Source: Gammaproteobacteria bacterium | GTDB taxonomy: Bacteria; Pseudomonadota; Gammaproteobacteria; BMS3Bbin11 | Assembly: GCA_036986095.1 (NCBI GenBank) | Contig: BTQX01000002.1 | Span: forward strand, 1 to 38,598 | DNA: 38,598 bases | Direction: 5' to 3' | Part shown: positions 3,995-38,257 of the stretch, piece after piece | How positions within the stretch are numbered: position 1 is the first letter of the stretch | Layout: each line of letters opens with the position of its first letter | Translations under genes and position numbers: made by a program | Notes under the pieces: generated by a model | What the model saw: only the letters and a program-made list of their open reading frames with translations | What the model was told of the DNA's origin: nothing | Databases searched by the model: none

Positions 3995-4011
3995 AATCTT
4001 TTGTCTATGGT

Positions 4012-4752
4012 CTATGGTCTTTGCGAAGCAAATACCCTCAACCCCTGCAGTACCAGATCTGGCTGTAAAACAACTGGCATTGTCAGATACGGTACCAGTT
4101 TCTCCGCATCCCCGCCTGTCATATAAATAACGGGTATCCTGTCAATCTCTGATGACTGATCTCTGACCACCCTCTCTATCCCACCAGCAAGGCCAAATAG
4201 AACACCGGCCTGCACAGCCTTCTCTGTTGATAGCGCGGTAGCATTAGCGACAGTGCTTGTGTCGCTAATCTCTTCAACGGCATCAGTATCAGCCCTTAGA
4301 CTTTGAAAAGCCGTATTCAAACCAGGCATGATGACACCACCGACAAAGAGACCCCTGGCATTGACTAAATCGATAGTAACCGCTGTTCCACAGTCTACGA
4401 CGATTACCGGGTCTTGCGTCATTCGATACGCTGCCAGCATCGCCATCCAACGGTCAACACCAAGTTGCTCCAGCTTACGGTAACTGTTTGTCAGGCCGCA
4501 ACAGCTCTGGCTACTGACTATAAATTCCGTATCAAGCTGCCATAGCTCAGCTACTGCTTTTCTTATTTCACTGGCAACACTTTCCCCCGCCACATTCGAG
4601 ACAATCGCCCGAGCAGGGACATCGCAGTTTGCCCATTTTTCGTGCAAACTGGAGACAGCAATTGTGAGACACTGACCTCCTATGATGAACGATTCATCCG
4701 TTGCCAACGCCCACTTTATAAAGCTGTTGCCACTGTCGATGAGTAGGTTCAT
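4012..4752 (-). CDS. coaX: Type III pantothenate kinase
   Basis: N-terminal LLIDSGNSFIKW (DxGNS phosphate-1 motif), VVDCGTAVTID (DxGTAxT motif) and a C-terminal MTGGDA motif. The start overlaps the birA stop (ATGA, 4749-4752). birA-coaX linkage is common in proteobacteria. Confidence 0.85.
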   Translation of the reverse strand: MNLLIDSGNSFIKWALATDESFIIGGQCLTIAVSSLHEKWANCDVPARAIVSNVAGESVASEIRKAVAELWQLDTEFIVSSQSCCGLTNSYRKLEQLGVDRWMAMLAAYRMTQDPVIVVDCGTAVTIDLVNARGLFVGGVIMPGLNTAFQSLRADTDAVEEISDTSTVANATALSTEKAVQAGVLFGLAGGIERVVRDQSSEIDRIPVIYMTGGDAEKLVPYLTMPVVLQPDLVLQGLRVFASQRP

Positions 4753-14437: not shown

Positions 14438-16099
14438 ATGAGAAAACCAGGACAATATATCTTCAGTAGCAGAATCCTCTCTGACTCTACACCCAGGGAA
14501 GGTACTACTGAATATTGGCGCTCATTATTCTATTTAAACCTTTACCGCATGTTACTGGCAGTTTTTCTCTCCACTGCCAGTCTTACCAGCGTTAGTGTTG
14601 GCAGTCTTGGTAGCAGACACCCTGAACTATTCATCTATACCAGTTTTAGCTATGCATTTTTAAGCCTTCTTTTCGCATTTTTAATACATTATGACTGGCC
14701 AGGATATATTATCCAGTGCCGCCTTCAAATACTGGTAGATATTATCATCACCATACTCCTGTATAATGCCAGTTCAGGTAGAGGATCAGGGATTGAAATA
14801 CTTTTTTTTATTACAGTTTCAGCTTCCGGGATTCTGCTTGGAGGCAGAGCTGCGCTCATTACAGCCTCGACGGCGACAATACTCCTGATACTCGAACATT
14901 TTTATGAAATCTTAATAAACCAACGGCCACCTGGTGGTTTCACCTCCCTCGGGTTTATTGGCAGCGGCCTGTTTATCACCGCATTTATTATTTACTACCT
15001 GACACTACTGCTAAGAAAAACGGAAATTGAAATTGCTGAGAAAAACATTACTTTGCAAAAGATGGGACATATTAACCAGCTCATTGTTGAACAGCTCGAA
15101 TCCGGCATTATTGTCGTCGATCAGTCGTCTCAGGTAATTTTATTCAATAACAGCGCCAGAGAGCTACTGACAGCTCCGGACAGCCTCAATATACCATTAC
15201 CACTCGATTCCCTACTCAATAAAATAAGTCTGGATGATGCATACTTTAGCAAGATATCTCATGAAAAAGAATCAAAAATTGAACTACCATCAGGTAAAAC
15301 GATTCTCACTCGCTACAGGCCCTTAGGTGACAAAGCTGAAAATGGCTATCTAATTTTATTCGATGACTATAGTCAGATTGAAAAAGAAAAAAGGAATGAA
15401 AAATTTATTGCCATGGGAAGGTTATCAGCCAGTATTGCTCATGAAATTCGAAATCCACTGGGGGCAATATGTCATGCAGGACAATTGCTCGCTGAGTCTC
15501 CCGGCATCTACAAGGAGAATATTCGACTCGTTGAGATTATCGAAGGCCAGAGCAGGCGCATCGACCAAATCATTAAAACCGTACTGGGATTAGGGCAGCA
15601 GAATGAGCAAAAGCTTCAGAAAATACCCATACATGACTGGCTGGACAGGATCATAAATGATTTTACACGTGAAACCCGGCTCACTGAGGATTCTATCCTT
15701 CTTAGTGGAGACTGTGTTACTAGCGCCTACGGCGATCCCGATCAGCTGCGGCAGGTGATTCAAAATCTGTTAACAAACTCTTTACGCTATGCTGACACAT
15801 CAAAATCACCCATCGTAATGATAGATATTTCTGAAAACACATCGGGTGAAGGCTGTACCATCAAACTATCTGACAACGGCCCTGGCATCGACAGATCCAT
15901 CCAGGATAAAGTGTTCGAACCCTTTTTTACAACCTCATCAACTGGCAACGGTCTGGGGTTATTTATTGCCAGAAAGATTTGTTTAAGCAATGGAGCTTCT
16001 CTCGAGTATATTCATATAGAATCTGGCAACGGCTATTTTGTACTAACGCTGGCCGACAAAAATACTTACCACAGGCTCAAAAATCACCAACAGGAATAA
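14438..16099 (+). CDS. pilS: Sensor histidine kinase PilS
   Basis: N-terminal LNLYRMLLAVFL motif and six TM segments as in PilS, followed by a PAS-like linker. The H-box is SASIAHEIRNPL, with N and G boxes LLTNSLRY, DNGPGI and GNGLGL. It is followed 2 nt later by a sigma-54-dependent response regulator. Confidence 0.85.
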   Translation: MRKPGQYIFSSRILSDSTPREGTTEYWRSLFYLNLYRMLLAVFLSTASLTSVSVGSLGSRHPELFIYTSFSYAFLSLLFAFLIHYDWPGYIIQCRLQILVDIIITILLYNASSGRGSGIEILFFITVSASGILLGGRAALITASTATILLILEHFYEILINQRPPGGFTSLGFIGSGLFITAFIIYYLTLLLRKTEIEIAEKNITLQKMGHINQLIVEQLESGIIVVDQSSQVILFNNSARELLTAPDSLNIPLPLDSLLNKISLDDAYFSKISHEKESKIELPSGKTILTRYRPLGDKAENGYLILFDDYSQIEKEKRNEKFIAMGRLSASIAHEIRNPLGAICHAGQLLAESPGIYKENIRLVEIIEGQSRRIDQIIKTVLGLGQQNEQKLQKIPIHDWLDRIINDFTRETRLTEDSILLSGDCVTSAYGDPDQLRQVIQNLLTNSLRYADTSKSPIVMIDISENTSGEGCTIKLSDNGPGIDRSIQDKVFEPFFTTSSTGNGLGLFIARKICLSNGASLEYIHIESGNGYFVLTLADKNTYHRLKNHQQE

Positions 16100-16101
16100 A
16101 A

Positions 16102-17475
16102 ATGCCAACATCCTCACCTCTTGTTCTGCTTATCGATGACGAACCTGACATCCTGGAACTTTTATCTTTAACGCTTAGTCGCATGGGATTGAAATCTGAA
16201 ACGTCTGACTCAGTCAAAGATGCCATTGCAAAATTGAATAGCAGAAACTTTAACCTATGCCTGACTGACTTAAGGCTACCCGATGGCAATGGGCTGGAGA
16301 TCGTCAATTTCATTCAACAGTCAATGCCGGAAATACCTGTCGCTGTTATTTCAGCCCATGGCAACATGCAGGCTGCCATCGATGCCATGAAAGCCGGGGC
16401 TTTTGATTTCGTCTCCAAACCTGTCGATCTTAAGCAGCTACGCGCGTTAATTGAAAGTGCCCTCGCACTCGGTACTAATATAGACAGGAAATACAGCGAT
16501 ACCAGTGGCCCCCGCTTGCTTGGTCAGTCTGCCTGTATCCAGAAAATCAGGGAACAAATTCGCAAACTTGCCAGAAGCATGGCACCTGTTTACATTCATG
16601 GCGAATCAGGGACAGGTAAAGAGCTTGTTGCAAGGTTAATACATCACAATAGCCCCAGAAGAGAGAGGGCATTTATTGCCGTCAATAGCAGCGCCATTCC
16701 AGCCGAACTCATGGAAAGCGAATTTTTTGGCCACCGCAAGGGAAGTTTTACAGGAGCCGTTTCAGACCATCCAGGTTTATTCCAGGCAGCTGAAGGTGGA
16801 ACCCTGTTTCTTGATGAAATTGCCGAGCTGCCTCTTTCCATGCAGGCAAAGCTGTTAAGAGCCATACAGGAAAGAGCCATCCGCCCGGTAGGTAGTCACA
16901 AAGAACTGCCTTTTGATTGTCGTATATTAAGTGCCACCCATCAGGACCTGGGTTCGCTGGTGAAAAGTGGTAAATTTCGTGAGGATCTCTATTACCGCAT
17001 CAATGTTATTGAGCTGGATGTCCCCCCATTACGCGCCCGCACTGAGGACATAGTGGAACTGGTGGAGCATATTTTACAAATAATTTCGGACCGAAATGAT
17101 ATTGCTCTGCCTGAGATAGCCCCCGATTTTTATAAAAAAATGCTCTCCTATTCATTTCCAGGAAATATTCGCGAACTGGAAAATATACTTGAACGAGCCG
17201 TTGCACTAGGTGAAGGACACACCATTAGCGCCGATGACCTGAATTTTCCATTGCCGGAGATGGCTTTGCATGAAACAGCGGGGCCGTCTGGCAACCCAGC
17301 GGGAAACAAGCCTTTGCCCAACGAATCACTGGATGATTTTCTGTTGCGCATCGAAAGGGAAGTGGTACAGCAGGCACTGGAAAAACACAGCTTCAACAAA
17401 ACGCGAACTGCCGAGTCTCTAGGTATTTCTTTCCGTTCATTCAGATATAAATTAAAAAAATTATCACTCGATTAA
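16102..17475 (+). CDS. pilR: Sigma-54-dependent response regulator PilR (NtrC family)
   Basis: Receiver domain (LLIDDEPDI ... LCLTDLRLPDGNG), AAA+ domain (GESGTGKE; GSFTGA, the GAFTGA sigma-54 contact loop; ELPLSMQAKLLR) and a C-terminal Fis-type HTH (NKTRTAESLGISFRSFRYKLKK). Start set at the ATG at 16102; the listed ORF start at 15979 would overlap pilS by 120 nt. Confidence 0.9.
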   Translation: MPTSSPLVLLIDDEPDILELLSLTLSRMGLKSETSDSVKDAIAKLNSRNFNLCLTDLRLPDGNGLEIVNFIQQSMPEIPVAVISAHGNMQAAIDAMKAGAFDFVSKPVDLKQLRALIESALALGTNIDRKYSDTSGPRLLGQSACIQKIREQIRKLARSMAPVYIHGESGTGKELVARLIHHNSPRRERAFIAVNSSAIPAELMESEFFGHRKGSFTGAVSDHPGLFQAAEGGTLFLDEIAELPLSMQAKLLRAIQERAIRPVGSHKELPFDCRILSATHQDLGSLVKSGKFREDLYYRINVIELDVPPLRARTEDIVELVEHILQIISDRNDIALPEIAPDFYKKMLSYSFPGNIRELENILERAVALGEGHTISADDLNFPLPEMALHETAGPSGNPAGNKPLPNESLDDFLLRIEREVVQQALEKHSFNKTRTAESLGISFRSFRYKLKKLSLD

Positions 17476-17710: not shown

Positions 17711-17807
17711 GCAACTATAAGGAAAATCAACGTGGCAAACCTATTTAATGTGTGTCTGTGTACTGGCGGGGCAGCGAAAAATGACAACGAGAAAGCTAGC
17801 AGGGGCA

Positions 17808-26973: not shown

Positions 26974-27924
26974 TCAAATTTTGTCATCAACTAAATATCC
27001 TATAATGTCGTTTATATCTGATTGAGCCTTCCAGCCAAGTATATTCATCACCTTTTCCGGGTTAGCACGACTGATCGTTAGATCAGTCGGCCTCAATAGC
27101 GCATCATTTATTATGATATGTTTTTCATAATTTAATTCAAATGCCGCAAAAACCAATTCGATAAACTTGATCAGACTAATGCTTACACCTGTTGCGACTA
27201 CAAAATCATCAGCAGTATCTTGCTGTAACATCATCCACATCACCTCCACATATTCAGGTGCCCAACCCCAGTCACGAACGATGTTGACATTCCCTAACTC
27301 AAGCTTCTCTTTAGAACCCAGGGAAATTTGTCGTGCAGTATCGACAATTTTTCTTGTAACAAAACGTTTTGGTCGTAAATTTGATTCGTGATTAAACAGA
27401 GTACCTGAGCAGGCATATAAGCCATAAGCCTCACGATAATTTGACAATTGCCAGAAAGCAGCCGACTTGGCTACAGCATAAGGACTCCTCGGCTTAAATG
27501 TCGTATCCTCATTAGCTTTACCGTTTCCTGTATCTCCAAAACACTCGCTGGACCCCGCATTATAGAAACGAATATTACCCCCAAGAAAGCGTATTGTCTC
27601 GAGTATGTTAAGCGTGCCTATTACTATACTCTCGATGGTTTCTACTGGCTGCTCAAATGATAGTCCTACCGAACTTTGTCCCGCTAAAAAATAAACTTCA
27701 TTGGGCTCAGCTAAGCTAAATGCCTGAAGGACACTTCGAAAATCTGTTGGTGCCATTGATAACAAGCGTACGTCATTGAATATCCCCAGACGATGCAGAT
27801 TACCAAATAATGATATATTTGCATCACGTGATGTCCCATAAACATCGTAGCCTTTGAGTAATAAGAATTTAGCCAGATAGGCGCCATCCTGACCACTAAC
27901 ACCACAAATAAGAGCCCTCTTCAT
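26974..27924 (-). CDS. gmd: GDP-mannose 4,6-dehydratase
   Basis: GVSGQDGAYLAKFLLLKGYDVYG, RSPYAVAK, LFNHES, FVTRKI, RDWGWAPEYVEVMWMMLQQ and DFVVATG are all close matches to conserved E. coli/P. aeruginosa Gmd blocks. The start codon directly abuts the stop of the upstream GT4 gene. Confidence 0.9.
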   Translation of the reverse strand: MKRALICGVSGQDGAYLAKFLLLKGYDVYGTSRDANISLFGNLHRLGIFNDVRLLSMAPTDFRSVLQAFSLAEPNEVYFLAGQSSVGLSFEQPVETIESIVIGTLNILETIRFLGGNIRFYNAGSSECFGDTGNGKANEDTTFKPRSPYAVAKSAAFWQLSNYREAYGLYACSGTLFNHESNLRPKRFVTRKIVDTARQISLGSKEKLELGNVNIVRDWGWAPEYVEVMWMMLQQDTADDFVVATGVSISLIKFIELVFAAFELNYEKHIIINDALLRPTDLTISRANPEKVMNILGWKAQSDINDIIGYLVDDKI

Positions 27925-29040
27925 TCAGTAAGCTCGCAACGATTGTTCGTAAACATTTAAGGTTACTCTTGCACATTTTTCCCAGCTGAAAGAATGTATT
28001 CTTTTTGCACCTTTTTGCCGGAGATCCGTTAACAGGTCATTCGATTGTATTATTTTTTCGATCACGTCACGTATTGAGTCAGCATCCTCAGGATCAAAAA
28101 AAGCTGCTGCTGTCCCTGCAATTTCTGGAATAGAACCTGCATGACTACAGGCAACAGGGCAATTATTTGACATTGCTTCCAGCAGTGGGATTCCAAATCC
28201 CTCATACAATGATGGAAACACAAATAATTCAGCATCCTGATAATATTTAGCGAGTAATTGGTCGCCTCCGGCTATTTGCTTTATCTGTTTACTGGATAAC
28301 TTAAGTTCAAGAAAGCGTTCATTCTCACAAGCTTTAAACGGGCCTCCGCCAAAACAGACAACCATGAAGTTTTCTCGTAAGAATGATGAGGCTGCATACG
28401 CTTGCAGGAATTTTGTAAAGTTCTTGTATCCATGCCTTTCACCAACATAAAGTAGGTACTTCATATCGTCATAGCCAGCTTTTTTCTGAGGCATTTTCAC
28501 GTCACTAATTTGCATTTCAAAACCAAGATGCACAACACTAACCTTTTCCTCAGGTATATCATATAATTTCAATAAATCATTTTTTGTATTCTCAGATATA
28601 CAAATTACCCTGTCAGCTTTCTCTACCGCAGCCTTTTTCTGTTCTATGACCTGTAATTTTCCGGGGAAATTATCCGGAAATAATTCGTGAATCATGTCAT
28701 AGACAGTCACAACGTGTAGCGCTTTACGTGACCAGTTTATATATCGGGAGAAATAGGTTTCATGAATAATGTCAGGAGAAAAACTGCGCGCCTGAATTGC
28801 GCCGAGGAACTGATTGCCTGCACGTAAGTAATTTCCAAGTAAGGGGAGTCGATTTATCCGCCTTCCACTAACAATGCCGGCGGGTAGTTGATCAAGGTAG
28901 GCATTCAGGTGGAACGGGGCGATGATCTTTGCGTCAACCTCGGGCATTTTTGACAGTCCTGATGCAAGACTGGATATATATCGAGAAACACCTCCATATG
29001 TCTGTGAACTGAATATCTGGGAATCAAATAATACTTTCAT
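27925..29040 (-). CDS. GT4 glycosyltransferase (mannosyl/rhamnosyltransferase-like)
   Basis: N-terminus MKVLFDSQIFSSQTYGGVSRYI is typical of O-antigen mannosyltransferase-type GT4 enzymes. The C-terminal motif is FPSLYEGFGIPLLEAMSNNCPVACS (EX7E). Confidence 0.75.
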   Translation of the reverse strand: MKVLFDSQIFSSQTYGGVSRYISSLASGLSKMPEVDAKIIAPFHLNAYLDQLPAGIVSGRRINRLPLLGNYLRAGNQFLGAIQARSFSPDIIHETYFSRYINWSRKALHVVTVYDMIHELFPDNFPGKLQVIEQKKAAVEKADRVICISENTKNDLLKLYDIPEEKVSVVHLGFEMQISDVKMPQKKAGYDDMKYLLYVGERHGYKNFTKFLQAYAASSFLRENFMVVCFGGGPFKACENERFLELKLSSKQIKQIAGGDQLLAKYYQDAELFVFPSLYEGFGIPLLEAMSNNCPVACSHAGSIPEIAGTAAAFFDPEDADSIRDVIEKIIQSNDLLTDLRQKGAKRIHSFSWEKCARVTLNVYEQSLRAY

Positions 29041-29677
29041 AAATTTTCATACAGACAGATTAAGCATTTTCGATCATATCCTTTCAGCTACCCAGCCATC
29101 TTCTTCGGCCTCTGTAAATCCTCCAGAAAGTTTCTGCTTTCCATTGAATATTATCATCAATAGACTCAGAATAGTGAAACAAGCTGTATCGAATAATTTG
29201 TGCTGGAGCATTGACGCTTTATACACGACTAACATACTCAACCCGCAGGGAACTACTGGTATCCATGTAATACTGATGATGAATAAAAACTGATTCGGCC
29301 TTGTGATGGGTGGATCAAAATTCAGTATTGAGAAAATCACTTCTGCCGGATATTTCCGGAAGTACGGCTTACAGACAAACTCCGTACAGTAGCAGTTTCT
29401 TTCCTGCCTGAGCAGGCTGGGATTGAAGCGTGGGTCAAGCTTGCAGTGCAGCTTGACTCACCAACAGGGAGAAATGGCGTTTTTTTATTTTAAACCTGTC
29501 TGTTATAGTTATTTTCAAACAACTTTTCTGGACACGAGGGTTTGCTGTTTTAAAGAACTTTGTCCTGTGGAGAAATAAAAACGATTAATTTGAAATGGTG
29601 ATAGAAGAGGCGCTTTCCGTTTCTGTCTCGCCATCAATATCTGATAACAGTGAAATAAAATGATAGTGTAATAATCT

Positions 29678-29692
29678 ACTATCAGTGATAGT
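29678..29692. promoter_or_regulatory. 15-bp perfect palindrome ACTATCAGTGATAGT (tetO-like operator core) with flanking TGATAG half-sites
   Basis: The central 13 nt CTATCAGTGATAG are identical to the core of the TetR operator. Extra TGATAG half-sites are at 29661-29666 and 29698-29703. It lies about 180 nt upstream of the RmlC-like gene, in an 0.8-kb non-coding strand-switch region. Confidence 0.4.
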
Positions 29693-29868
29693 CGCCATGA
29701 TAGAAGTCTGTATGTTCGCACTTCCAGGCTTCATAACACCAGTCAAGGAATATACCGGTTTTAGATTTTCAATCGAAAATGATGAAGAGAGAAAATTTCA
29801 GATAAAGGTATATAGGGAGCCTGATATTCCTCATTTTAATCCAAAGGAAAAATCCAACTTGCAGCATC

Positions 29869-30399
29869 ATGAAAGTACAACCTCTGAAAATTAATGATAT
29901 GTGCTTACTTGAAGAAGAAGTATTTCAGGATAATCGGGGTTCTTTTGAGGTGTTCTGGGAATCTGAGTGGGTCACAGACTTGCTGCCTGATTTTTCAATT
30001 ACAAGCGCTCATCATTCTTATAACAGGAAATCTGGCACGATACGTGGACTACACTACCAGGCTTCACCTGACCAACAGACGAAGATAGTTTCTTGTGTGG
30101 CGGGTAAGGTTTGGGATGTTGTAGTCGATATGAGAAAGAATTCAACGACTTATCTTAAATGGTCTACAGTTGAGCTGGAAGCCGGTACTGGCAGGTCGCT
30201 CATGATACCTGGAGGGTGTGCGCATGGATTTGTAACTCTGATGGATTGCACAACTATTGCATATCTTATTGACGGGGAATACGAGCCATCTTCAGCCCGG
30301 ACAGTAAGATGGGATGACCCCCTGCTGAATATTCCCTGGCCAGTTTCTGACCCGATACTTTCCGAGCGCGATCGAAATTCACCGATGATCTGTCAATAA
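29869..30399 (+). CDS. NDP-4-keto-6-deoxyhexose 3,5-epimerase family protein (RmlC-like cupin)
   Basis: FQDNRGSFEVFW, RGLHYQ, KIVSCVAGKVWDVVVDMR and GCAHGF match the RmlC-family blocks (DxRGxF, RGLHxQ, KLVRxxxGxxxDVxVDxR, GxAHGF). Confidence 0.85.
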   Translation: MKVQPLKINDMCLLEEEVFQDNRGSFEVFWESEWVTDLLPDFSITSAHHSYNRKSGTIRGLHYQASPDQQTKIVSCVAGKVWDVVVDMRKNSTTYLKWSTVELEAGTGRSLMIPGGCAHGFVTLMDCTTIAYLIDGEYEPSSARTVRWDDPLLNIPWPVSDPILSERDRNSPMICQ

Positions 30400-31322
30400 T
30401 GAAAGTACTTGTAACTGGCGCGAGTGGATTCCTGGGGAATACTGTGATTAATCCACTTATTCAGCGAGGGCATGAAATAGTTGCACTTAACCGCCGGACA
30501 ATAGATCAAAATAAGGTTAAAGTGTCATGGGTGAAAGGAGATATTCATTCACCTGCAGAAATTGATACTATAATAAAGACTGAGAAACCCGAAGGTTTAT
30601 TGCATCTGGCATGGGACACCACTCACGGTAACTACTGGAACAGCAACAGAAACTTATGCTGGACAGCGGCAAGTTTGTATTTAGCTGAGTCATTTATTCG
30701 ACATGGCGGGAAGCGGATTGTAGTAGCAGGAACAAGTGCTGAATATAAATGGGGTCACAATCGATTACTGGAAGAAAATAAATCAGAATTTTCCCCTGAT
30801 AGCCTATACGGAATAAACAAGTACTCGTTGCGCGAAATTATTCAGGCAAGTACGATCCTGAACGATGTATCATGGGCATGGGGACATATATTTAATATTT
30901 TCGGTCCGGGTGAGAAGAGAGAACGCCTGATACCCAGAGTCATTGTAAAACTGCTTAACGATGAAAAAATTATTTTTGATGATGGAATGCTCTACAGAGA
31001 TTTTCTATATGTTGACGACGCGGGTAGTGCTTTCGCTGCCTTATTCGATTGCAATGTCCAGGGGTCTGTAAATATTGCTTCAGGCAAGGCAATATCAGTA
31101 AGATATCTGGTACAGACAATTGCAAAAATACTAGGAAAACCAGGCCTTGTTCAGTTTGATGAGCATAAATCATTAACCACTGAGCCTGCCTACGTTGTCG
31201 GCTCTGTTGAGAGACTTAGAAAGGAAGTTCGCTGGTCTCCGGAAATAAATTTTTATCAACGACTGCAGTACACCTGTGACTGGTGGAAAAATAGCATAAA
31301 AGAAAATATTGAGGAAATATGA
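30399..31322 (+). CDS. NAD(P)-dependent epimerase/dehydratase family SDR (probable 4-ketoreductase)
   Basis: MKVLVTGASGFLGN Rossmann motif and catalytic YGINK (YxxxK). 307 aa. The start overlaps the stop of the epimerase gene (TAATG). Confidence 0.75.
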   Translation: MKVLVTGASGFLGNTVINPLIQRGHEIVALNRRTIDQNKVKVSWVKGDIHSPAEIDTIIKTEKPEGLLHLAWDTTHGNYWNSNRNLCWTAASLYLAESFIRHGGKRIVVAGTSAEYKWGHNRLLEENKSEFSPDSLYGINKYSLREIIQASTILNDVSWAWGHIFNIFGPGEKRERLIPRVIVKLLNDEKIIFDDGMLYRDFLYVDDAGSAFAALFDCNVQGSVNIASGKAISVRYLVQTIAKILGKPGLVQFDEHKSLTTEPAYVVGSVERLRKEVRWSPEINFYQRLQYTCDWWKNSIKENIEEI

Positions 31323-32560
31323 AAAATTATAAGTGCATGAATTGCCGCAGTACAAATATCGAACGATTTATCGATCTTGGCCGGCAACCCAATGGTAATC
31401 ATTTTCCATCATCTGGCGAAGTTGAATCTGAGCCTAAATTTCCTTTTGCTATGGCTGTATGTCAGGATTGTTGGCAAGTACAGATAGAAGAATTTCCTTC
31501 AGCTGAGTTTATGTTTACAAACCATCCATACATAACAGGAGTAAACATGCCTGTCGTGACACATTTTGACACGATGGTGACAAGGACTATCGAGAAATTT
31601 AACATATCCGAAAATAGCCTTATTCTGGATATTGGAGCGAATGATGGGACATTGCTATCAAACTTCCGCAGAAAAGGTATGCGTGTTCTGGGAATAGATC
31701 CTGGGCAAAGAACAGGAAGACTTGCCAAGGAGAATGGCATTACAGTATGTGAAACATTCTGGGACAAAAATACGGCTAATAGCTTAAAGCAGCTTGGTAT
31801 CCAGCCAGATCTAATAACAGCTACTGCTGTTTTCTATCATGTAGAAGACATACACAGCTTCGTTGAAGGGCTATCGAACTTAATGGACGAAAATACGGTA
31901 TTCCTGACGCAGTGCGTGTATCTCAAGGATGTCATCGAGAAAGTACAGTTCGATCACTTTTATCATGAGCACACGATGATACATGCGATTGCTCCTTTGA
32001 AAAGGCTTTTTGGAGAATATGGCCTGAAAATACTTGATGTGGATTTCTACTCTGTTCACGGTGGCTCGTTTGTTCTATATGTTGGTAAGGATGGATCTCC
32101 ATATAAATCATCGCCCAATGTCCAGAAAGCAATTCATGCTGAGAAAGAGGCAGGGTTGCAAGATATGTCCACGTACATGAAATTCACTAAATGTGTGGAA
32201 AAAAATAGAGATGACCTTAACGCGTTATTAGATAAGATAACTGCTGAGGGAAAGTCAATATATGCCCTTGGTGCACCATTAAAAGGAAGTACGTTGCTGA
32301 ACTATTGCGGAATCGGAACGGACTCAATAAAGCTTGCAACTGAGGTAAACCGGTTCAAAATCGGCAAATTAACACCAGGCACTCACATTCCGATAGTTTA
32401 TGAGGAATCAATCGGAGAACAGCCGGATTATTACCTGGTACTATCCTGGAACTTTCTCGATTACTTCATCGATAAATATAAAGACTATTTGAGAGCAGGA
32501 GGTCAGTTTATTATCCCTCACCCGGAAGTCAGAGTTATTGGCCATAAAACAGAACTGTAA
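31319..32560 (+). CDS. NDP-hexose C-methyltransferase (TylCIII/TcaB9-like)
   Basis: An N-terminal four-Cys zinc ribbon (CMNC ... CQDC) is followed by the SAM motif ILDIGANDGTLL and a C-terminal domain of about 150 aa. This three-domain layout is characteristic of sugar C-3 methyltransferases. ATGA overlap with the upstream SDR gene. Confidence 0.7.
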   Translation: MKNYKCMNCRSTNIERFIDLGRQPNGNHFPSSGEVESEPKFPFAMAVCQDCWQVQIEEFPSAEFMFTNHPYITGVNMPVVTHFDTMVTRTIEKFNISENSLILDIGANDGTLLSNFRRKGMRVLGIDPGQRTGRLAKENGITVCETFWDKNTANSLKQLGIQPDLITATAVFYHVEDIHSFVEGLSNLMDENTVFLTQCVYLKDVIEKVQFDHFYHEHTMIHAIAPLKRLFGEYGLKILDVDFYSVHGGSFVLYVGKDGSPYKSSPNVQKAIHAEKEAGLQDMSTYMKFTKCVEKNRDDLNALLDKITAEGKSIYALGAPLKGSTLLNYCGIGTDSIKLATEVNRFKIGKLTPGTHIPIVYEESIGEQPDYYLVLSWNFLDYFIDKYKDYLRAGGQFIIPHPEVRVIGHKTEL

Positions 32561-32593
32561 CAATTAAGACTGAAACTACGCAGGTTTGGCAGG

Positions 32594-33826
32594 ATGGTAA
32601 GTCGCTTATTGATTGTTGAGGAAGCCTTGAAAAATCGAAATGGCCATTGGTATGAATATACTAAGGCTATTATTGAAGAAGCAAGGTCTCGCGGGATTGA
32701 TGTAACACTACTTGTACACAAAGATATAGAGACAGATATTTGTGATGAGTTAGGAGCGACACCCTGGTTTCCTGTGACCAGTTGGGATCAAGTGTACAGC
32801 CGTTCAAATCCAGCAATACGATATTTTGGGTTTTTAAGACACAACTTCCTGGTTGCACGATGGATGACACGGCATTTCAGGAAAAACCCACCTTATGACA
32901 TTGTGTTAGTACCCACGGTCGTTCTCTATCATTGGTTGGCCTGGCGATGGCTGGTTATTCCAGGATCAGGTTTCTGGTTTAAGAAAGTTACTCTAACCAT
33001 AAGAACTAATGTCGGGAAATACAACCCGGAAAAAAATAGTTACAGCTTTAATTTATCAACGAAAATATTTGGAAAAATATTAAAAACATTTAAACAGTTA
33101 GTAAAAAATAACAAAGTGGTATTTGCAACTGATAGCGATAAACTTGCAGAACAATATCAGCTATTATCCGGCATTCCATTCAGAACCTACCCTCATCCGC
33201 GGACTATAAAAAATCTGCCTGAGAGAGATAGTAAGGCAATCAAGGATAAGTGCATCGTGTTATCGGCTTTAGGCCCGCCACGATACGAAAAAGGTAGTGA
33301 TTTAATCATTGGCGCGGTGAGCAACCTCATAAAATACACTCCACAACTACCTGTAAAGTTCGTACTGCACTGGAATAAAACCGACGTTCTCCATGACGGA
33401 AATGAGGTATGTATTCCAGATGAAATCAATGAAGCGGGAAATATCGAAATTATTCGTAATAATATGAGTAGTCAGGAATATCAGAAAAGAATCGATGAGA
33501 CAGACTTGATGCTTCTGCCATATCGGCGTCATGAATATCATGACAGGCTATCCGGTGTCGCAATTGAAGCCTTTCAGTCAGGTGCCTCATGTATTTGTAT
33601 CTCAAATACATGGATAGAAGATTGTATGAATGAGGTTGGTTCCGGTATATCCATCAAAGAGGAGTCAGTGGATTCCCTTACCCGGGGAATTCTGGAATAC
33701 ATTGAAAACTACGAAAAATTTAAATTATTGGCAAATAACAATATACAAACGGCCCGGAATTTTCATTCATCGGCAGCCTTTGTAGATACCTTGTTCGATA
33801 TCCAACCGCACCAGTGTCCGGACTAA
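32594..33826 (+). CDS. Hypothetical protein, possible GT-B fold glycosyltransferase
   Basis: 410 aa, last gene of the + strand sugar operon. The C-terminal segment LLPYRRHEYHDRLSGVAIEAFQSGASCICIS loosely resembles the GT4 E-x7-E donor-binding region. The assignment is weak. Confidence 0.35.
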   Translation: MVSRLLIVEEALKNRNGHWYEYTKAIIEEARSRGIDVTLLVHKDIETDICDELGATPWFPVTSWDQVYSRSNPAIRYFGFLRHNFLVARWMTRHFRKNPPYDIVLVPTVVLYHWLAWRWLVIPGSGFWFKKVTLTIRTNVGKYNPEKNSYSFNLSTKIFGKILKTFKQLVKNNKVVFATDSDKLAEQYQLLSGIPFRTYPHPRTIKNLPERDSKAIKDKCIVLSALGPPRYEKGSDLIIGAVSNLIKYTPQLPVKFVLHWNKTDVLHDGNEVCIPDEINEAGNIEIIRNNMSSQEYQKRIDETDLMLLPYRRHEYHDRLSGVAIEAFQSGASCICISNTWIEDCMNEVGSGISIKEESVDSLTRGILEYIENYEKFKLLANNNIQTARNFHSSAAFVDTLFDIQPHQCPD

Positions 33827-33996
33827 GAGACTGGAATCAAGTCATGGGAATTCTGATTGGATGATTTCAATACAGAAATACGTCTTTGAAAGCTGTTTCC
33901 TGTATGAAAAGATTCAAGGTAAGGGTACCTTAATCAGCACTTGTCTGACTCAATCCCGCATACACAGGAAGCCGAACAACAGATGATTCAGCACAT

Positions 33997-35346
33997 TTAC
34001 TCCTCACGGCCTTTTACAAGAAGGTACGAATAGAATGCCCGGGTTTTCATCCTGAATATAGCCCTTGTTTTCCTGTTGAATAAATCAAATATATAGGCCG
34101 CGACAAAATGAGACAGGAGTGTGCCAATAGCTGCACCTGTAACACCTATCCATGGAATCAGGAATAAATTCAAAACAATGTTTACAACTACACCTGCCAG
34201 TGACCTGTATAAAAAAAGTTTTTGAAGGTTTTCATTAACAAGCCACATGCTGCTGGCGATTCCCAATGATACAAATATTCCTGACCAGATAAGCACTACG
34301 AGAACAGAGCCTGCATCCGCATATTCTGAACCAAATAATAATGTAACTACCCAGTCAGAGAAAAAACTTACCAGTATTGCAACAGCAATACCAAGCATGA
34401 CCACCAAATTAAAAAGTTTTTGGAAAGATGCTATATATTTACTCTCACTCTTATCTTTTAACTTTATCACTGACGGGAATACCGATGTGGCGATAGCCAT
34501 GGGTACGAAATACCACACCTCGCTGATGCGCACAGCAGCACTGTATATACCAACGGCACTGTTACCAAGCATTTGCCCCAGCATAATTTGATCAATACGC
34601 ATATAGACAATAATTGCCATTCCAGTAAATAACAATGGCCAACTGTCCCGTAACAGGGTTTTGCTGCGTTGATAGTTAAATTTCCAGGAGCCGCTCCCCT
34701 CGGCCCGCCAGATATACACAGCAAATAATCCTATGAAAACCGATAGACTACTCGCCACAGTCACCCACACAAACCCCATAATGGGTGCCTGATACAGGAT
34801 CAGAAGAACCTGTGCGGCTGACATAAGAAGAAATGCACCATTCTCCACCCAGACGGTATATTTCGACATTACCTGGGATTCAAACCAGTACTTAACAACT
34901 TCAGATGCTTTAAATACCAGAGTAAGTCCCAAAACCATGACGATCAGGCGAAGCAAATCGTTCTCTGGCTGAAGCAGAATGATAGTAACCACAACAAGTA
35001 TATATGCCAGAATGCCAGACAGGAACTGAAGTAAAAAAGCTGTTCCTAAAATTGTATTTGCATTTTCTGGCTGATTTACCAGTTCACGTACCACCAGGCC
35101 GCTAAAACCCAGACTGGCAACAACGCCAAAAAGTGCAACAAATGCCATTGCATAGTTAAGCAGGCCAAACATTTCCGGGCCAAGATATCGAGCCACCCAT
35201 ATGCCGACTATCACGCCTACCCCCATGCGTAATAGTTTGTCTCCAAATAGCCAGGAGGTATTTAATATAATATCCTGCAGGCTTTTACTGTTTCTGATAC
35301 TCTGCTGCAAATTGACTGGCAACAAATTGAAAATAGTCTTTTTCAA
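33997..35346 (-). CDS. wzx: Polysaccharide/oligosaccharide flippase (Wzx, MOP superfamily)
   Basis: 449 aa with about 12-14 TM segments. The N-terminus NTSWLFGDKLLRMGVGVIVGIWVARYLGPEMFGLLNYAMAF is typical of Wzx-type polysaccharide biosynthesis proteins. TTG start as listed. Confidence 0.75.
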   Translation of the reverse strand: MKKTIFNLLPVNLQQSIRNSKSLQDIILNTSWLFGDKLLRMGVGVIVGIWVARYLGPEMFGLLNYAMAFVALFGVVASLGFSGLVVRELVNQPENANTILGTAFLLQFLSGILAYILVVVTIILLQPENDLLRLIVMVLGLTLVFKASEVVKYWFESQVMSKYTVWVENGAFLLMSAAQVLLILYQAPIMGFVWVTVASSLSVFIGLFAVYIWRAEGSGSWKFNYQRSKTLLRDSWPLLFTGMAIIVYMRIDQIMLGQMLGNSAVGIYSAAVRISEVWYFVPMAIATSVFPSVIKLKDKSESKYIASFQKLFNLVVMLGIAVAILVSFFSDWVVTLLFGSEYADAGSVLVVLIWSGIFVSLGIASSMWLVNENLQKLFLYRSLAGVVVNIVLNLFLIPWIGVTGAAIGTLLSHFVAAYIFDLFNRKTRAIFRMKTRAFYSYLLVKGREE

Positions 35347-35384: not shown

Positions 35385-35951
35385 TTAATGTTCAACTTCT
35401 TCTGCCTTCTCTTTTCCTTCCCATATCAAAAGCACTGCTCTGTTCTCCATGATCTTTGAATCTTTTTTAAATTCTTCAGGTGTGAATACCAGCGTTCTTA
35501 TCTTTCGTTGTATATACTTTTCAGTTTTTCTGACAAGGTCTCTCAGATTAACCCAGTCAATATCACCAACTAGAACCAGATCAATCAATCCACTATCTTT
35601 TCCTTCTGCATAATCATCAACCACGAAAGCTAGCTCAAGATTTCCAAGACGCATCGCTATACTCTCCAGTATCCTGTCCATACCCATGGCCTTTTTCACC
35701 ATCGAGTGCAGTTCAGGAAACAAGCTATGGCTCGTATTGGCAGAATAGTTTATTTGTCGTCCCCCTTTTTCTCTACTTAACAAACCGACACTACTAAGGT
35801 TGTCGAGCTCTTCCTTGATCTGGCTCGGGGATACGTCGAACTCCTTGGCCAGTTCACGAAGATAGGCATTCTGATCCGGGTTTAGGAACAAACGCATGAG
35901 AATGCGGGCACGCACCTTTGAGGTAATCAGACCATTGAAGACATCTAGCAT
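35385..35951 (-). CDS. Winged-helix (ArsR-like) transcriptional regulator with a C-terminal nucleotidyltransferase-like domain
   Basis: N-terminus SKVRARILMRLFLNPDQNAYLRELAKEFDVSPSQIKEELDNLSSVGLL is an ArsR/wHTH pattern. The C-terminus YAEGKDSGLIDLVLVGD resembles the GS-x-DxD motif of the minimal nucleotidyltransferase fold. There is no SD; the ATG abuts the heptamer repeat. Confidence 0.6.
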   Translation of the reverse strand: MLDVFNGLITSKVRARILMRLFLNPDQNAYLRELAKEFDVSPSQIKEELDNLSSVGLLSREKGGRQINYSANTSHSLFPELHSMVKKAMGMDRILESIAMRLGNLELAFVVDDYAEGKDSGLIDLVLVGDIDWVNLRDLVRKTEKYIQRKIRTLVFTPEEFKKDSKIMENRAVLLIWEGKEKAEEVEH

Positions 35952-36041
35952 ACGGGTTACGGGTTACGGGTTACGGGTTACGGGTTACGGGTTACGGGTT
36001 ACGGGTTACGGGTTACGGGTTACGGGTTACGGGTTACGGGT
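35951..36041. repeat. Perfect tandem heptanucleotide repeat (TACGGGT) x13
   Basis: I counted 13 uninterrupted 7-nt units from 35951 to 36041. The first base is the complement of the A of the regulator's ATG. Confidence 0.95.
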
Positions 36042-36084
36042 GCTGCCATAGCTACCGCAGCCACATATCGTTCTGTTTTATAGA

Positions 36085-36113
36085 ACAATAGACATTGAAT
36101 AGAATTTTGTCAA
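36085..36113 (-). promoter_or_regulatory. Candidate sigma-70 promoter for the wHTH regulator
   Basis: The minus strand reads TTGACA (36113-36108), a 17-nt spacer, then TATTGT (36090-36085). It lies 43 nt beyond the distal end of the heptamer tract, so the tract would be transcribed as the 5' leader. Confidence 0.3.
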
Positions 36114-36544: not shown

Positions 36545-38257
36545 ATGTCCACTCCCGCAACTGCAATGACACTTACTGGTCTGCCACTCCGACTGGTGGG
36601 AAATGGTGTATTCTTCGAGGATGAAGTTCTAAAGCTACTAAAGAGTGTTGAGGGTAAAAAGAAATCTTTTTTTACCGCTGCAATTGAAAAAAAACCCTCT
36701 AAAAATACAGACATCTGCTTCAATGCCGCTGAAGAATATGGCCTGCCGCTGATTGATGTCCGGGCGCTCGACCCTGAAGCTCTCGAAGCAGGGCTATTGA
36801 GCGAAAAAATTATACGCAAACACCAAGTTCTCCCCATCCAGAAACGTGGCAACAAACTCTATGTTGCTATCTCCGATCCCACGAATCTTGCCGTACTGGA
36901 TGAAATCCGCTTCAGTACAGGTACTGCTGTTGAGGCTATCGTCGCTGAACCGACTAGACTGGAAAAACTAATTGATGTATCGCTTGATAAGGCTGATACA
37001 TCGCTGGCCGACCTGGCAGGCCAGGATCTGGATGACATCGATATTGGTGTTAATGAGGATGAATCAAGCGCGGGAGCAGCTGATGAAGCACAAGCTGATG
37101 CCCCGGTAGTACGCTTTGTGAATAAGGTAATTCTTGATGCTGTAAATACTGGCGCATCAGATATCCATATCGAACCTTATGAAAAAACATTCAGAATACG
37201 CTATCGGGTTGATGGTGTATTGCATGTCATTAATACCCCTCCACCTGCCATGGCCAGGCGCCTGGCGGCCCGTATCAAAATTCTATCCAGGCTCGATATC
37301 GCTGAACGCCGAGTCCCACAGGATGGCCGCATGCAAATGCGTTTGTCGAAAAATCGCACTATCGATTTTCGTGTCAGTACCTGTCCAACCATGTACGGGG
37401 AAAAGGTGGTTATTCGCGTCCTTGACCCTTCTGCCACAACCGTAGGGGTAGAAAATCTCGGCTTTGAGCCGGAACAAAAAGAATTATACATGGATGCCAT
37501 TGAACGTCCGGATGGCATGGTGCTGGTAACAGGACCAACGGGCAGTGGTAAAACAGTGACACTCTACACTGCCCTGAGAATACTCAATTCAGATGAAAAA
37601 AATATCTCTACGGTTGAAGACCCGGTAGAAATCAATCTGACAGGCGTAAACCAGGTGCAGATTAATGAGAAGGCAGGTATGCTGTTCGCCACTGCACTGC
37701 GCTCATTCCTGCGTCAGGATCCTGACATCATAATGGTCGGGGAAATACGGGATCTTGAGACGGCTGAAATTGCAATTAAAGCAGCCCAGACAGGGCATTT
37801 AGTACTTTCCACTTTACATACCAATGATGCCCCATCAACCCTTACAAGATTAGTAAATATGGGGGTCCCTGCATTCAACATCGCATCTTCGGTTCACCTT
37901 ATTATTGCCCAGCGGCTAGCCCGCCGCCTATGCACCGTATGCAAGAAAAAAAAGGAATACCCGGAAAGCGTTCTAACAACTGCAGGCTTTAAGCCGGATG
38001 AACTCGAGAGTTTAGAAATATATGAACCCAAAGGCTGTGATAACTGTACAAATGGCTACAAAGGGCGTGTAGGTATTTTCCAGTTACTGCCTCTCTCTGA
38101 CACTATGGCCGAGTTAATAATGAAAGGTGGAAACGAAGCCGACATAACCAGGTTGACTGAGGAAGAGGGCCATGCAAACCTCCGACAGGCTGGACTGGTC
38201 AAAATGCGACAGGGTCTGACAAGCCTGGAAGAAATTGAAAGGGTGACAAACAACTAG
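36545..38257 (+). CDS. pilB: Type IV pilus assembly ATPase PilB (GspE family)
   Basis: 570 aa. Walker A is GPTGSGKT, Walker B/Asp box is DPDIIMVGEIRD, and the His box is TGHLVLSTLHTND. The tetracysteine zinc motif is CTVCKKK ... CDNC. The N-terminal GSPII-type domain includes PIQKRGNKLYVAISDP. Confidence 0.92.
   Translation: MSTPATAMTLTGLPLRLVGNGVFFEDEVLKLLKSVEGKKKSFFTAAIEKKPSKNTDICFNAAEEYGLPLIDVRALDPEALEAGLLSEKIIRKHQVLPIQKRGNKLYVAISDPTNLAVLDEIRFSTGTAVEAIVAEPTRLEKLIDVSLDKADTSLADLAGQDLDDIDIGVNEDESSAGAADEAQADAPVVRFVNKVILDAVNTGASDIHIEPYEKTFRIRYRVDGVLHVINTPPPAMARRLAARIKILSRLDIAERRVPQDGRMQMRLSKNRTIDFRVSTCPTMYGEKVVIRVLDPSATTVGVENLGFEPEQKELYMDAIERPDGMVLVTGPTGSGKTVTLYTALRILNSDEKNISTVEDPVEINLTGVNQVQINEKAGMLFATALRSFLRQDPDIIMVGEIRDLETAEIAIKAAQTGHLVLSTLHTNDAPSTLTRLVNMGVPAFNIASSVHLIIAQRLARRLCTVCKKKKEYPESVLTTAGFKPDELESLEIYEPKGCDNCTNGYKGRVGIFQLLPLSDTMAELIMKGGNEADITRLTEEEGHANLRQAGLVKMRQGLTSLEEIERVTNN

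Follow-up and report, generated by a model that had tools for sequence, protein, structure and literature searches.

The regulator gene and its genomic context

The DNA analysed here (the window, 38.6 kb) belongs to a deep-sea gammaproteobacterium that has not been cultured and whose relatives include the BMS3 bins and Arenicellales. The gene of interest lies on the minus strand (35385..35951) and encodes a regulator of 188 amino acids. Its N-terminal part is a winged helix of the ArsR/SmtB type, and its C-terminal domain (~100 amino acids) has no match. Comparison of the fold with those of SmtB, CzrA, HlyU, SqrR, and NolR gave a Foldseek probability of 1.0 over ~90 residues. Because its sequence HMM scores fall below the curated cut-offs, we assign the regulator to an uncharacterised ArsR/SmtB subfamily. 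The annotated ATG is supported as the true start by more than 100 homologues that begin with M-x-x-x-F-N-G-L-I-T-S-K, with little or no variation at F5, G7, I9, T10, S11, and K12. Further, the pN/pS ratio of the gene (0.04-0.08) shows that it is under purifying selection, indicating that the repeat-bearing leader described below supports expression.

A gene for a Wzx-type flippase (Polysacc_synt; 33997..35346, minus strand) lies 38 nt downstream of the regulator gene on the same strand, and no terminator is predicted between the two. From this arrangement, the flippase is probably co-transcribed with the regulator and thus placed behind the same leader. On the other side, and outside the element considered here, pilB (T2SSE/MshEN; T2SSE match, 4e-148; 36545..38257, plus strand) is transcribed divergently and starts 504 nt from the repeat tract. 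In a sister strain, the operon comprises at least 12 co-directional glycan genes. This glycan operon, which varies among strains and forms an insertion that separates pilA from pilB, begins with the regulator gene. The initial annotation, which had placed a winged-helix regulator, divergent from pilB, at the border of a surface-glycan/pilus island, is borne out.

A perfect heptanucleotide tract in the leader of the regulator gene

Tandem Repeats Finder reported 13.0 copies of TACGGGT at 35951-36041 (period 7, 100% matches, 0 indels, score 182), which confirms the perfect 13-copy repeat described originally. On the minus strand, the 91-nt tract reads (ACCCGTA)13, and its mRNA sense contains 39 C and 13 G, making it C-rich and G-poor; the plus (template) strand is (GGGTTAC)n. 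The tract is the only perfect simple sequence repeat (SSR) of at least 14 nt (units of 2-9 nt) in the window, the probability of its arising by chance is ~1e-46, and the two-unit 14-mer, allowing up to 2 mismatches, occurs 12 times inside the tract and once elsewhere in the window, where 0.12 occurrences are expected. The tract was also recovered by both SPAdes and MEGAHIT from several read sets of a related strain and, because these assemblies are independent, it is no artefact of the window contig.

The tract and the regulator ATG (35951-35949) overlap by one base, the final A of the 13th ACCCGTA unit. We found no GGA, AGGA, GGAG, or GAGG at positions -25 to -1 before this ATG and hence no Shine-Dalgarno (SD) sequence. 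The tract itself contains neither a start codon nor a -10-like hexamer, and a TAA closes each of its three frames once per 21 nt, the in-frame TAA lying 5 codons upstream of the ATG. The fusion to the start codon, the missing SD sequence, and the position of the in-frame stop therefore all hold as annotated.

Beyond the tract lies a σ70-type promoter, TTGACA-17-TATTGT (36085..36113, minus strand; 10/12 score), whose block is identical across all close relatives, whether repeat-bearing or repeat-less. An extended palindrome, TATCGTTCT-N7-AGAACAATA (36066..36090), with the core GTTCT-N7-AGAAC at 36070-36086, overlaps the -10 element and is conserved in 38 of the 43 closest orthologues at a median distance of 15 nt before the start. 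A winged-helix fold together with a palindrome overlapping the protein's own promoter is the combination expected of an ArsR/SmtB autorepressor, and the palindrome is thus probably the operator through which the regulator represses its own gene, a prediction from sequence. We infer a transcription start site at ~36078. Because promoter and operator are upstream, the tract contains no start codon or -10 element, and it runs into the ATG, the tract must be transcribed, within a leader of about 125-127 nt counted from the inferred start site, and the leader of about 125 nt proposed earlier stands. It falls in neither the ORF nor the -35/-10 spacer of the promoter. No Rfam family was matched in the window.

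Between operator and tract, repeat-bearing alleles, and only these, carry a G-rich segment, GTGGCTGCGGTAGCTATGGCAGC (36042..36064, minus strand), which holds two pentamers complementary to CCGUA (UGCGG and UAUGG). A 10-codon upstream ORF (36049-36020, minus strand) begins in this segment.

Origin and copy number of the tract

The tract is lineage-specific and evolutionarily labile, as judged from its absence in equally close strains. Four repeat-less alleles (L087, L207, L310, and L311) have an identical promoter/operator block and heptad-periodic leaders, and pS of the regulator gene between the window and repeat-less alleles (0.05-0.06) is the same as that between the window and the repeat-bearing sister-strain allele L081. 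In the repeat-less close strains, the leader is an ordinary one of 27-35 nt with degenerate AACCnnn heptads (the L001 leader reads GCAGC-CGTCAAC-CGTAAAA), and the tract took the place of these last 27-35 nt of the ancestral leader. Comparison of the alleles suggests that the array probably grew locally out of the AACCnnn heptads. The sister strain has ACCCATA as its first unit where the window has ACCCGTA, which indicates that the array has turned over. The breakpoint of homology between strains is at the 3′ end of the regulator gene, away from the tract.

Thirteen copies are present in five assemblies from two lineages that are 5% diverged, namely the window and the sister-strain assemblies L081, L082, L083, and L317, a uniformity more readily expected of a tract that is stable or under selection for length than of one that varies freely. 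Nine copies are present in one MAG contig (L084, identical to contig L318), which matches the 13-copy alleles over 3.96 kb with 0 mismatches, the sole difference being a 28-nt (4-unit) gap. The 9-copy periodic run measures 58 nt, the length to which de Bruijn assembly at k = 55 would collapse the 86-nt run, and the count of nine may thus be an assembler collapse. The three SNPs separating L081 from L082 fall outside the overlap with L084, and the 9-copy contig is therefore not assignable to a separate sample. The evidence that copy number varies among related strains is slight. In the JGI metagenomes, a search with the junction pattern gave no match and one with the operator pattern recovered one repeat-less allele; the regulator and PilB sequences of the window had no exact match.

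Predicted structure of the leader RNA

The leader is predicted to be less folded than 192 of 200 shuffled sequences (z +1.7). A long-range helix between nt 7-25 and nt 125-143, predicted to sequester the AUG, is equally probable at 1-25 copies, and the modelled accessibility of the AUG is flat (0.19-0.28) over the same range; with 5 copies or more, the 35 nt preceding the AUG are identical. In the model, pairing of the G-rich 23-mer is confined to the AUG region and the two units nearest to it. In the orthologue L036, which has an array of its own (see below), the leader has a z of ~0, and the anti-repeat pairs with units at the start of the array instead of those at its end. The mRNA contains a single C>G bubble, which coincides with the tract (91 nt; C 41-42% and G 14-17% in 78-nt windows), and the length range of the tract matches the criteria for Rho-utilisation (rut) sites, which are 60-80 nt long and contain YC dimers (PMC6144790).

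The tract as a possible graded modulator of a putatively autoregulated operon

Our preferred explanation, to which we give a probability of about 0.5, is that a slipped-strand microsatellite has expanded in place in the transcribed leader of an autoregulated ArsR/SmtB-fold repressor and that its length acts as a graded modulator. The (ACCCGUA)n RNA would provide an unstructured, C>G-skewed platform devoid of an SD sequence, and gain or loss of units would alter the leader length in 7-nt steps. Leader length could then modulate translation initiation, mRNA fate, and/or Rho loading in a graded manner and would never turn the gene ON or OFF through frameshifts. As the regulator encoded by the first cistron probably represses its own transcription, less translation of it would raise transcription of the whole operon and thereby move the set-point of the flippase and glycan genes transcribed along with it. 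In favour of this explanation, a 61%-identical orthologue (L036) has an independent (AACCTTC)15 array in the same place.

It is possible, if doubtful, that the tract is instead a near-neutral passenger, in which slippage expanded a proto-repeat in a tolerant leader and copy number has no physiological meaning. Because the regulator family initiates without SD sequences, its leaders may tolerate almost any sequence: most orthologues lack an SD sequence and have short and variable leaders. (The initial annotation had taken the missing SD sequence to be a consequence of the repeat; this causal step fails, since most orthologues sharing the operator lack one likewise.) The commonest short tandem repeats in orthologous loci are heptamer arrays. 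We do not claim a family-specific enrichment of arrays in the regulator leader: across 80 loci, an array was seen in L036 and, in weaker form, in L063 and L016 only, which is near the intergenic expectation.

The same unit is also found far from this gene family. Exact (ACCCGTA)3 occurs at at least 119 sites across phyla in GTDB representative genomes, and ACCCGTA arrays lie upstream of housekeeping genes in many phyla; exact (ACCCGTA)n is found within 30 nt upstream of ordinary genes, such as those for EamA, NagB-like, dehydroquinase, PitA, LipA-like, pseudouridine synthase, and similar proteins. In viral contigs, ACCCGTA gave 16 matches, compared with 12, 47, 7, 17, and 2 for the composition-matched control heptamers ACCCGAT, ACCCTGA, TAACGCC, CAGCATC, and CACGACT, respectively. 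A sequence-specific, widely conserved element is thereby ruled out and, because the unit is no commoner than the controls, arrays of this type may be tolerated passengers. The flat modelled accessibility of the AUG points the same way. However, 13 copies in two lineages ~5% apart are unexpected for a neutral hypermutable tract. Further, sequence changes directly before an AUG usually affect expression, and here ~90 nt of C-rich RNA have been added directly before the AUG of the operon's first gene. The orientation of ACCCGTA arrays before genes also argues against neutrality, the C-rich sense being favoured by 20 to 8 (p = 0.036).

The constancy of 13 copies in both lineages would likewise suit a module of fixed length, in which an RfaH-type, ops-like site is followed by a C-rich, Rho-utilisation-like spacer of ~13 units under stabilising selection, the two together providing antitermination and ribosome recruitment for a glycan operon without an SD sequence. 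We regard this as unlikely. Inside the pre-repeat segment, at 36058-36051 on the minus strand, the sequence GCGGTAGC matches the RfaH-contacting core (G2-C9) of ops at 8 of 8 positions, in the sense orientation and on the non-template strand, and does so in repeat-bearing alleles only. A first gene without an SD sequence and a long co-directional polysaccharide operon (here the glycan genes seen in the sister strain) are hallmarks of RfaH targets, which include the JUMPStart-bearing LPS, capsule, and pilus operons (PMC5995543), and the 91-nt C>G bubble compares with a rut footprint of 60-80 nt. On the other hand, the full ops 12-mer, GGCGGTAGCGTG, is matched at 8 of 12 positions only (positions 1 and 10-12 mismatch) and was not recovered when up to 3 mismatches were allowed, and the pause-inducing dinucleotide T11-G12 is one base out of place. 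The window contains two copies of the 8-mer where 0.65 are expected, no RfaH gene or other NusG paralogue is present among the annotated ORFs of the window, and known ops leaders contain no SSR. The motif was also recognised after the fact. As a feature of the family it is ruled out, since CGGTAG/GGTAGC is absent from the leaders of 80 other orthologues.

A DNA-level role seems very improbable to us. The template strand, (GGGTTAC)13, could by modelling fold into up to 3 G-quadruplexes (G4s), which might hinder transcription or replication, or promote recombination at the edge of the island, in the manner of the pilE G4 of Neisseria. All 10 overlapping canonical G3N1-7 ×4 motifs of the window are on the plus strand and in the tract, G4-aware folding gains ~11 kcal/mol, and ordinary DNA hairpins are weaker than in shuffled sequences (z +3.5). 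Nevertheless, the independent AACCTTC array of L036 has no G-runs, and the strain breakpoint is at the 3′ end of the regulator gene and not at the tract. Further, the non-G3 control CAGCATC is as frequent in viral contigs as the G3-complement units ACCCGTA and ACCCGAT (counts above), indicating that G3 content is no guide to abundance.

Classical ON/OFF phase variation by frameshift, which the original annotation had allowed for, and an assembly artefact have nothing in their favour beyond the presence of a long SSR and are refuted by the sequence, the former because the tract is outside the ORF, has TAA in every frame, and is followed by a conserved N terminus that begins at the ATG, and the latter by the recovery of the tract with two assemblers from several read sets.

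Relation to known repeat-bearing leaders

The tract is a real slippage-type leader microsatellite, kin in kind to those of hmw1A, uspA2, and the TAACTGA arrays. In Haemophilus influenzae, hmw1A and hmw2A carry (ATCTTTC)n in the 5′ UTR and are expressed in a copy-number-dependent manner (PMC12721329). Both systems have a heptamer SSR between promoter and start, in the leader (given the predicted transcription start site here), at a surface-structure locus, and both have a pyrimidine-rich sense strand and a nearby G-rich segment complementary to the units. There is, however, no sequence relationship, and the tract here abuts the ATG of the regulator that heads the operon, whereas the hmw repeats precede an adhesin gene. 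The G-rich segment here is 5′ of the repeats, spans 23 nt, and pairs with 2 units, whereas the hmw hairpin involves ~10 repeats. The hmw repeats show RNase III processing and an inverse dose-response; for the present leader, no stable long hairpin of the hmw1A type (an RNase III substrate) is predicted, the leader being less structured than random. The analogy drawn in the initial annotation is thus apt in position and unit length (PMC12721329) but does not extend to a long repeat hairpin.

According to the summary in PMC4679880, uspA2 of Moraxella catarrhalis has (AGAT)n in its 5′ UTR, with 6-23 copies among strains and an expression optimum. As described there, this 5′-UTR SSR acts as a rheostat and not a switch; it differs from the present tract in being a tetranucleotide, in a pathogen, before a surface-protein gene, and unfused to the start codon. 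By analogy with such systems, a rheostat function of the (ACCCGTA)13 tract is plausible.

The TAACTGA arrays of marine Beggiatoaceae, cyanobacteria, and some Bacteroidetes (MacGregor 2015, PMC4679880) resemble the tract in being forward heptamers that end within a few nt of the start, with no canonical ribosome-binding site, in environmental non-pathogens; they differ among strains in 7-nt steps (PMC4679880). The genes downstream are functionally unrelated, as also seen for (ACCCGTA)n elsewhere. Against this, the unit here is ACCCGTA (rotation TAACCCG), with only TAAC in common, and 13 copies compare with a typical 2-6. Further, many sets occur per genome there, whereas the window has one and an extra 20 kb of the sister strain has no further array.

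To our knowledge, SSR contingency loci are known almost solely from host-adapted pathogens, and if the length of the tract varies and affects expression, stochastic tuning of surface glycans would extend to free-living chemosynthetic communities. The locus is a concrete test case for the unexplained start-abutting heptamer arrays of Beggiatoaceae, cyanobacteria, and Bacteroidota, and the material for comparison makes the question directly testable: alleles with and without the repeat that share one promoter and operator sequence, the separate array of an orthologue, and the same unit in cultured bacteria. Among these cultured carriers are Pedobacter agri MADA_1818, whose array adjoins the ATG of an EamA gene, Paenibacillus phytohabitans LMG 31459, and Marinobacterium nitratireducens. 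A broader proposal, which we put forward as a long shot, is that the tract, together with the G-rich, ops-like segment on its 5′ side, represents a leader module of a new kind, in which ~90 nt of C-rich heptamers would serve as a length-tunable platform for Rho loading or ribosome standby before an autorepressor gene without an SD sequence, unit number would set the gain of the feedback loop that controls a pilus-associated glycan operon, and that start-abutting heptamer arrays (ACCCGTA, AACCTTC, and TAACTGA) might represent a widespread, unrecognised class of translational/termination control in environmental bacteria.

Finally, Mazel et al. are said to have reported in 1990 the cyanobacterial STRR heptanucleotide repeats, tandem heptamers in intergenic DNA with several units per genome. 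Intergenic heptamers of differing units are likewise seen in L016, L071, L094, and L155, although in another phylum and with other units.

The repeat tract and the start codon of the regulator

As the initial annotation had described, TRF resolved positions 35951-36041 as (TACGGGT)13 with 100% matches, no indels, and a score of 182, and this tract is the sole perfect simple-sequence repeat (SSR) of 14 nt or longer within the 38.6-kb window. When the window was scanned for the two-unit 14-mer with up to two mismatches, 12 occurrences were found in the tract and one elsewhere (0.12 expected); the expectation for the whole tract by chance is ~1e-46. Read on the minus strand, the tract is (ACCCGTA)13, and its final A is indeed the A of the ATG of the regulator gene (35385-35951, minus strand; 188 aa). 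This ATG is the true start of the regulator: more than 100 homologues share a MLDVFNGLITSK-type N-terminus at their starts, and an alignment of 34 sequences shows little or no variation at residues 5-12. The proposed in-frame TAA 5 codons upstream was also recovered, and a TAA closes each frame every 21 nt. Since the tract abuts the ATG and contains neither a start codon (ATG, GTG, or TTG) nor any -10-like hexamer, the regulator can be expressed only from an upstream promoter.

Promoter, probable operator, and leader

The promoter-like site suggested previously, TTGACA-17-TATTGT (36113-36085, minus strand), matched at 10 of 12 positions in a promoter scan. Transcription from this site would place the tract within a leader of ~127 nt, 90 nt of which are repeat, in keeping with the mostly repetitive leader of ~125 nt anticipated from the sequence. 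An extended palindrome at 36066-36090, conserved among the closest orthologues, does not differ between the window and any close relative, whether repeat-bearing or repeat-less. Of the 43 closest orthologous loci (L001-L043), 38 have a palindrome (GTTCT-N7-AGAAC) 3' of a TTGACA/TATAAT-like promoter, often extended to 9-10-bp arms that take in the -10 element, and the start codon in orthologous loci lies a median of 15 nt past the palindrome end. An ArsR/SmtB-fold dimer on a palindrome over its own -10 element is the textbook layout of an autorepressor, and the element at 36066-36090 is a probable autoregulatory operator, to which the regulator would bind. The initial annotation further attributed the lack of a Shine-Dalgarno (SD) sequence to the repeat. 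We found no SD-like 3-5-mers between -25 and -1 of the regulator, so the absence stands, but most palindrome-bearing orthologues also lack an SD sequence, so that its absence characterises the family and does not stem from the repeat. In a more distant subfamily (L044-L080), the palindrome is absent and SD sequences are present.

The regulator as the probable first gene of a glycan operon

The regulator belongs to an uncharacterised family of the ArsR/SmtB fold with 2,534 homologues. It fell below the curated thresholds of ArsR-type HTH models in a profile search; its AlphaFold model (pLDDT 77) matched SmtB, CzrA, HlyU, SqrR, and NolR with a Foldseek probability of 1.0 over the N-terminal ~90 residues, the remaining ~100 C-terminal residues lying outside the match. 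Among named relatives, bacterium BMS3Bbin11 and BMS3Abin11 (both unclassified) and Arenicellales MAGs at 79-82% regulator identity are the closest. Within the window, pilS and pilR (14438-17475) are followed by two pilin genes (17748-19196), two large adjacent ORFs (19358-21238 and 21240-23180; 626 and 646 aa) with no Pfam match at E<=1e-5, and genes for glycosyltransferases, sugar-nucleotide enzymes, methyltransferases, and a Wzx-type flippase (23189-35346); pilB (36545-38257) is divergent from the regulator. Because the flippase gene, in the same orientation, starts 38 nt past the regulator stop and the gap holds no predicted terminator, and because a sister strain carries at least 12 co-directional glycan genes 3' of the regulator, we conclude that the regulator is probably the first gene of a glycan operon, the content of which is strain-dependent. 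Homology between the window and the sister-strain contig L081 stops at the regulator's 3' end, and the C-terminal tails of the two regulators differ. These strains have pilB, the intergenic region, the tract, and the regulator in common, and the glycan genes directly behind the regulator (window 33997-35346; L081/L316 10597-20582) are wholly different: the flippase and a GT1 in the window, versus an MBL-fold protein, an MptE-like protein, a GT2, a CMP-sugar synthetase, dehydrogenases, and methyltransferases in the sister strain. A terminator-like hairpin, CGCAUUCUCAUGCG then UUUGUUCCU, within regulator codons 16-23 (35893-35906, minus strand) probably arose by chance, with 0.9 such matches expected in the scan, as these codons are conserved for protein reasons.

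Alleles and copy number of the tract

Relatives with a protein identity of at least 90% fell into two groups. In the repeat-bearing group, contigs L081, L082, L083, L316, and L317 carry ACCCATA+(ACCCGTA)12, and L084 (the same contig as L318) carries ACCCATA+(ACCCGTA)8; two Logan contigs end inside the tract. In the group without the tract, the leader reads ...GAACGATAT-AATAATCGTAAATCGGAAAAARGTCCT-ATG in L087, L207, and L310, AATGTAACCGGAAATCGTAAGTCGAAAAAAGTCCT in L311, AATAATGCAACCATGAACCGAAWAAAAGCCCT in L309 and L312-L315, and TAATGCAGCCGTCAACCGTAAAATTTCCC in the Arenicellales locus L001. The repeat-less leaders contain degenerate heptads (AATCGTA/AATCGGA, AACCGGA/AATCGTA/AGTCGAA, AACCATG/AACCGAA, and CCGTCAA/CCGTAAA), and, judged by these alleles, a proto-repeat of this sort was most likely the seed from which the array grew in place. 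The coding pS of the window is 0.05-0.06 against repeat-less L310 and L311 and 0.061 against repeat-bearing L081; gain or loss of the tract is thus recent. In the same comparison, the pN/pS of the regulator is 0.04-0.08, indicating that it is functional behind the tract.

L084 and L081 align over 3,959 nt with no mismatches and one 28-nt gap. The periodic run of the 9-copy contig (L084) is 58 nt, whereas that of the 13-copy sister strain is 86 nt; we infer that the former has exactly the length that a k=55 de Bruijn collapse of the latter would leave, and the SNPs checked did not assign the 9-copy contig to a sample of its own. Neither the 86-nt nor the 91-nt run is itself a default-SPAdes collapse length (58 and 56 nt at k=55; 79 and 77 nt at k=77), and the window's 91-nt run is likewise no collapse length for the default MEGAHIT k-list. 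Thirteen copies were found in four sister-strain assemblies (SPAdes and MEGAHIT k127; several read sets) and also in the window strain, which is ~5% diverged. The evidence for copy-number variation is therefore weaker than at first sight, and the copy numbers favour a stable modal length of 13 no less than they favour hypervariability.

How the leader might act

Our preferred reading, to which we assign a probability of about 0.5, is graded modulation and not ON/OFF switching: leader length and composition would grade expression of the regulator and its operon, and autorepression would amplify or buffer this effect. The main rival reading, which we consider less likely, is that the tract is a near-neutral passenger. 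Of 200 shuffles, 192 are predicted to be more structured than the leader (z +1.7). A long-range helix is predicted in which the pre-repeat segment (nt 7-25) pairs with the last unit, the AUG, and codons 2-5 (nt 125-143); this helix would sequester the AUG. Helix probability and AUG accessibility are almost unchanged from 1 to 25 copies in the folding model, so thermodynamics alone predicts no rheostat. Within the mRNA, C>G skew is confined to the tract (C 41-42% and G 14-17% in 78-nt windows; 26 YC dimers). Rho loads onto 60-80 nt of unstructured YC-rich RNA, with an ideal Rut window of 78 nt, and the tract agrees in composition and length with this published description (PMC6144790). Nine units come to 63 nt, at the low end of the 60-80-nt footprint, and 13 units come to 91 nt; hypothetically, the two arrays would straddle the ideal Rut size.

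The pre-repeat segment, a G-rich 23-mer (GTGGCTGCGGTAGCTATGGCAGC; 36042-36064, minus strand) seen in repeat-bearing alleles only, contains the start of a 10-codon uORF (36049-36020) and, on the non-template strand, GCGGTAGC, the RfaH-contacting core of the loading site ops (PMC5995543). Against a role as ops, the 12-mer matches here at only 8 of 12 positions, and the core 8-mer occurs twice in the window; no ops-like motif was found in the leaders of 80 other orthologues and no NusG paralogue among the window ORFs. The plus (template) strand, (GGGTTAC)13, carries the window's only canonical G-quadruplex motifs.

The tract resembles the (ATCTTTC)n leader of Haemophilus hmw1A/hmw2A in position and unit length but is not predicted to form the hairpin of those leaders (PMC12721329). 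TAACTGA arrays also abut start codons without an RBS (PMC4679880); the unit here is a different one, and the window has a single (ACCCGTA)n array. The uspA2 (AGAT)n repeat is likewise a 5'-UTR SSR. The tract is best filed under this already known kind of 5'-leader SSR, for which its placement before a probable autoregulator in a free-living deep-sea bacterium is unusual. Every factual element of the initial annotation was confirmed and its interpretation was partly supported: the tract is a real, clean, and testable feature of a known kind, and its contingency role remains a proposal.

Heptamer arrays in other genomes

Exact (ACCCGTA)3 occurs at 119 or more places in GTDB representative genomes of many phyla. 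The genes after (ACCCGTA)n elsewhere are ordinary (NagB-like, dehydroquinase II, deacetylase, PitA, radical-SAM, pseudouridine synthase, methyltransferase, and hybrid kinase), and leader arrays across the 80 orthologous loci are not clearly above expectation; C-rich-sense arrays lie within 30 nt 5' of an ATG-initiated ORF of at least 100 aa in 20 cases, versus 8 in the opposite orientation (p=0.036; 9% for random positions). In the cultured Pedobacter agri MADA_1818, the array runs directly up to the ATG of a gene for an EamA transporter. Further, a 61%-identical orthologue (L036) has an independent (AACCTTC/AACCTTA)15 array of ~15 copies (3890-3996) in the equivalent position, after the same promoter and palindrome; the array fills the leader, stops 4 nt short of the ATG, and has on its 5' side AGGTTTGAG, in which the repeat unit is inverted.

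We rejected ACCCGTA as a conserved motif because, in viral contigs, control heptamers of matched composition occur at comparable frequencies (16 for (ACCCGTA)3 versus 12, 47, 7, 17, and 2 for ACCCGAT, ACCCTGA, TAACGCC, CAGCATC, and CACGACT). The 47 stretches of the (ACCCTGA)3 control in IMG/VR contigs (L238-L284) are three times the target and the other controls. Exact arrays of 3-14 copies were seen in representative genomes of Bacteroidota, Chloroflexota, Planctomycetota, Actinomycetota, Bacillota, and Pseudomonadota, often beside arrays of related or different heptamers (L088-L206; e.g. L093 5852-5909, L157, L113, L102, and L127); Paenibacillus phytohabitans LMG 31459 is a further cultured carrier. 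Heptamer arrays in general are common: they dominate among the short tandem repeats of the orthologous loci (546 kb), and 7 is the most frequent repeat period over the 80 loci. Some Desulfobulbaceae and Desulfoluna loci hold several different heptamer arrays within a few kb (L016 1010-1098, 2592-2670, and 3846-3866; L071 189-220 and 2112-2143). Elsewhere in the window, the convergent acrB-like and coaX genes are separated by a heptad-periodic 32-nt inverted repeat (3908-3939/3974-4005), the arms of which are 84% complementary across a 34-nt spacer, and (GTCTATG)2.6 at 4003-4020, just after it, overlaps the coaX stop; the inverted repeat at 3908-4005 may be a bidirectional terminator made of degenerate heptamers.
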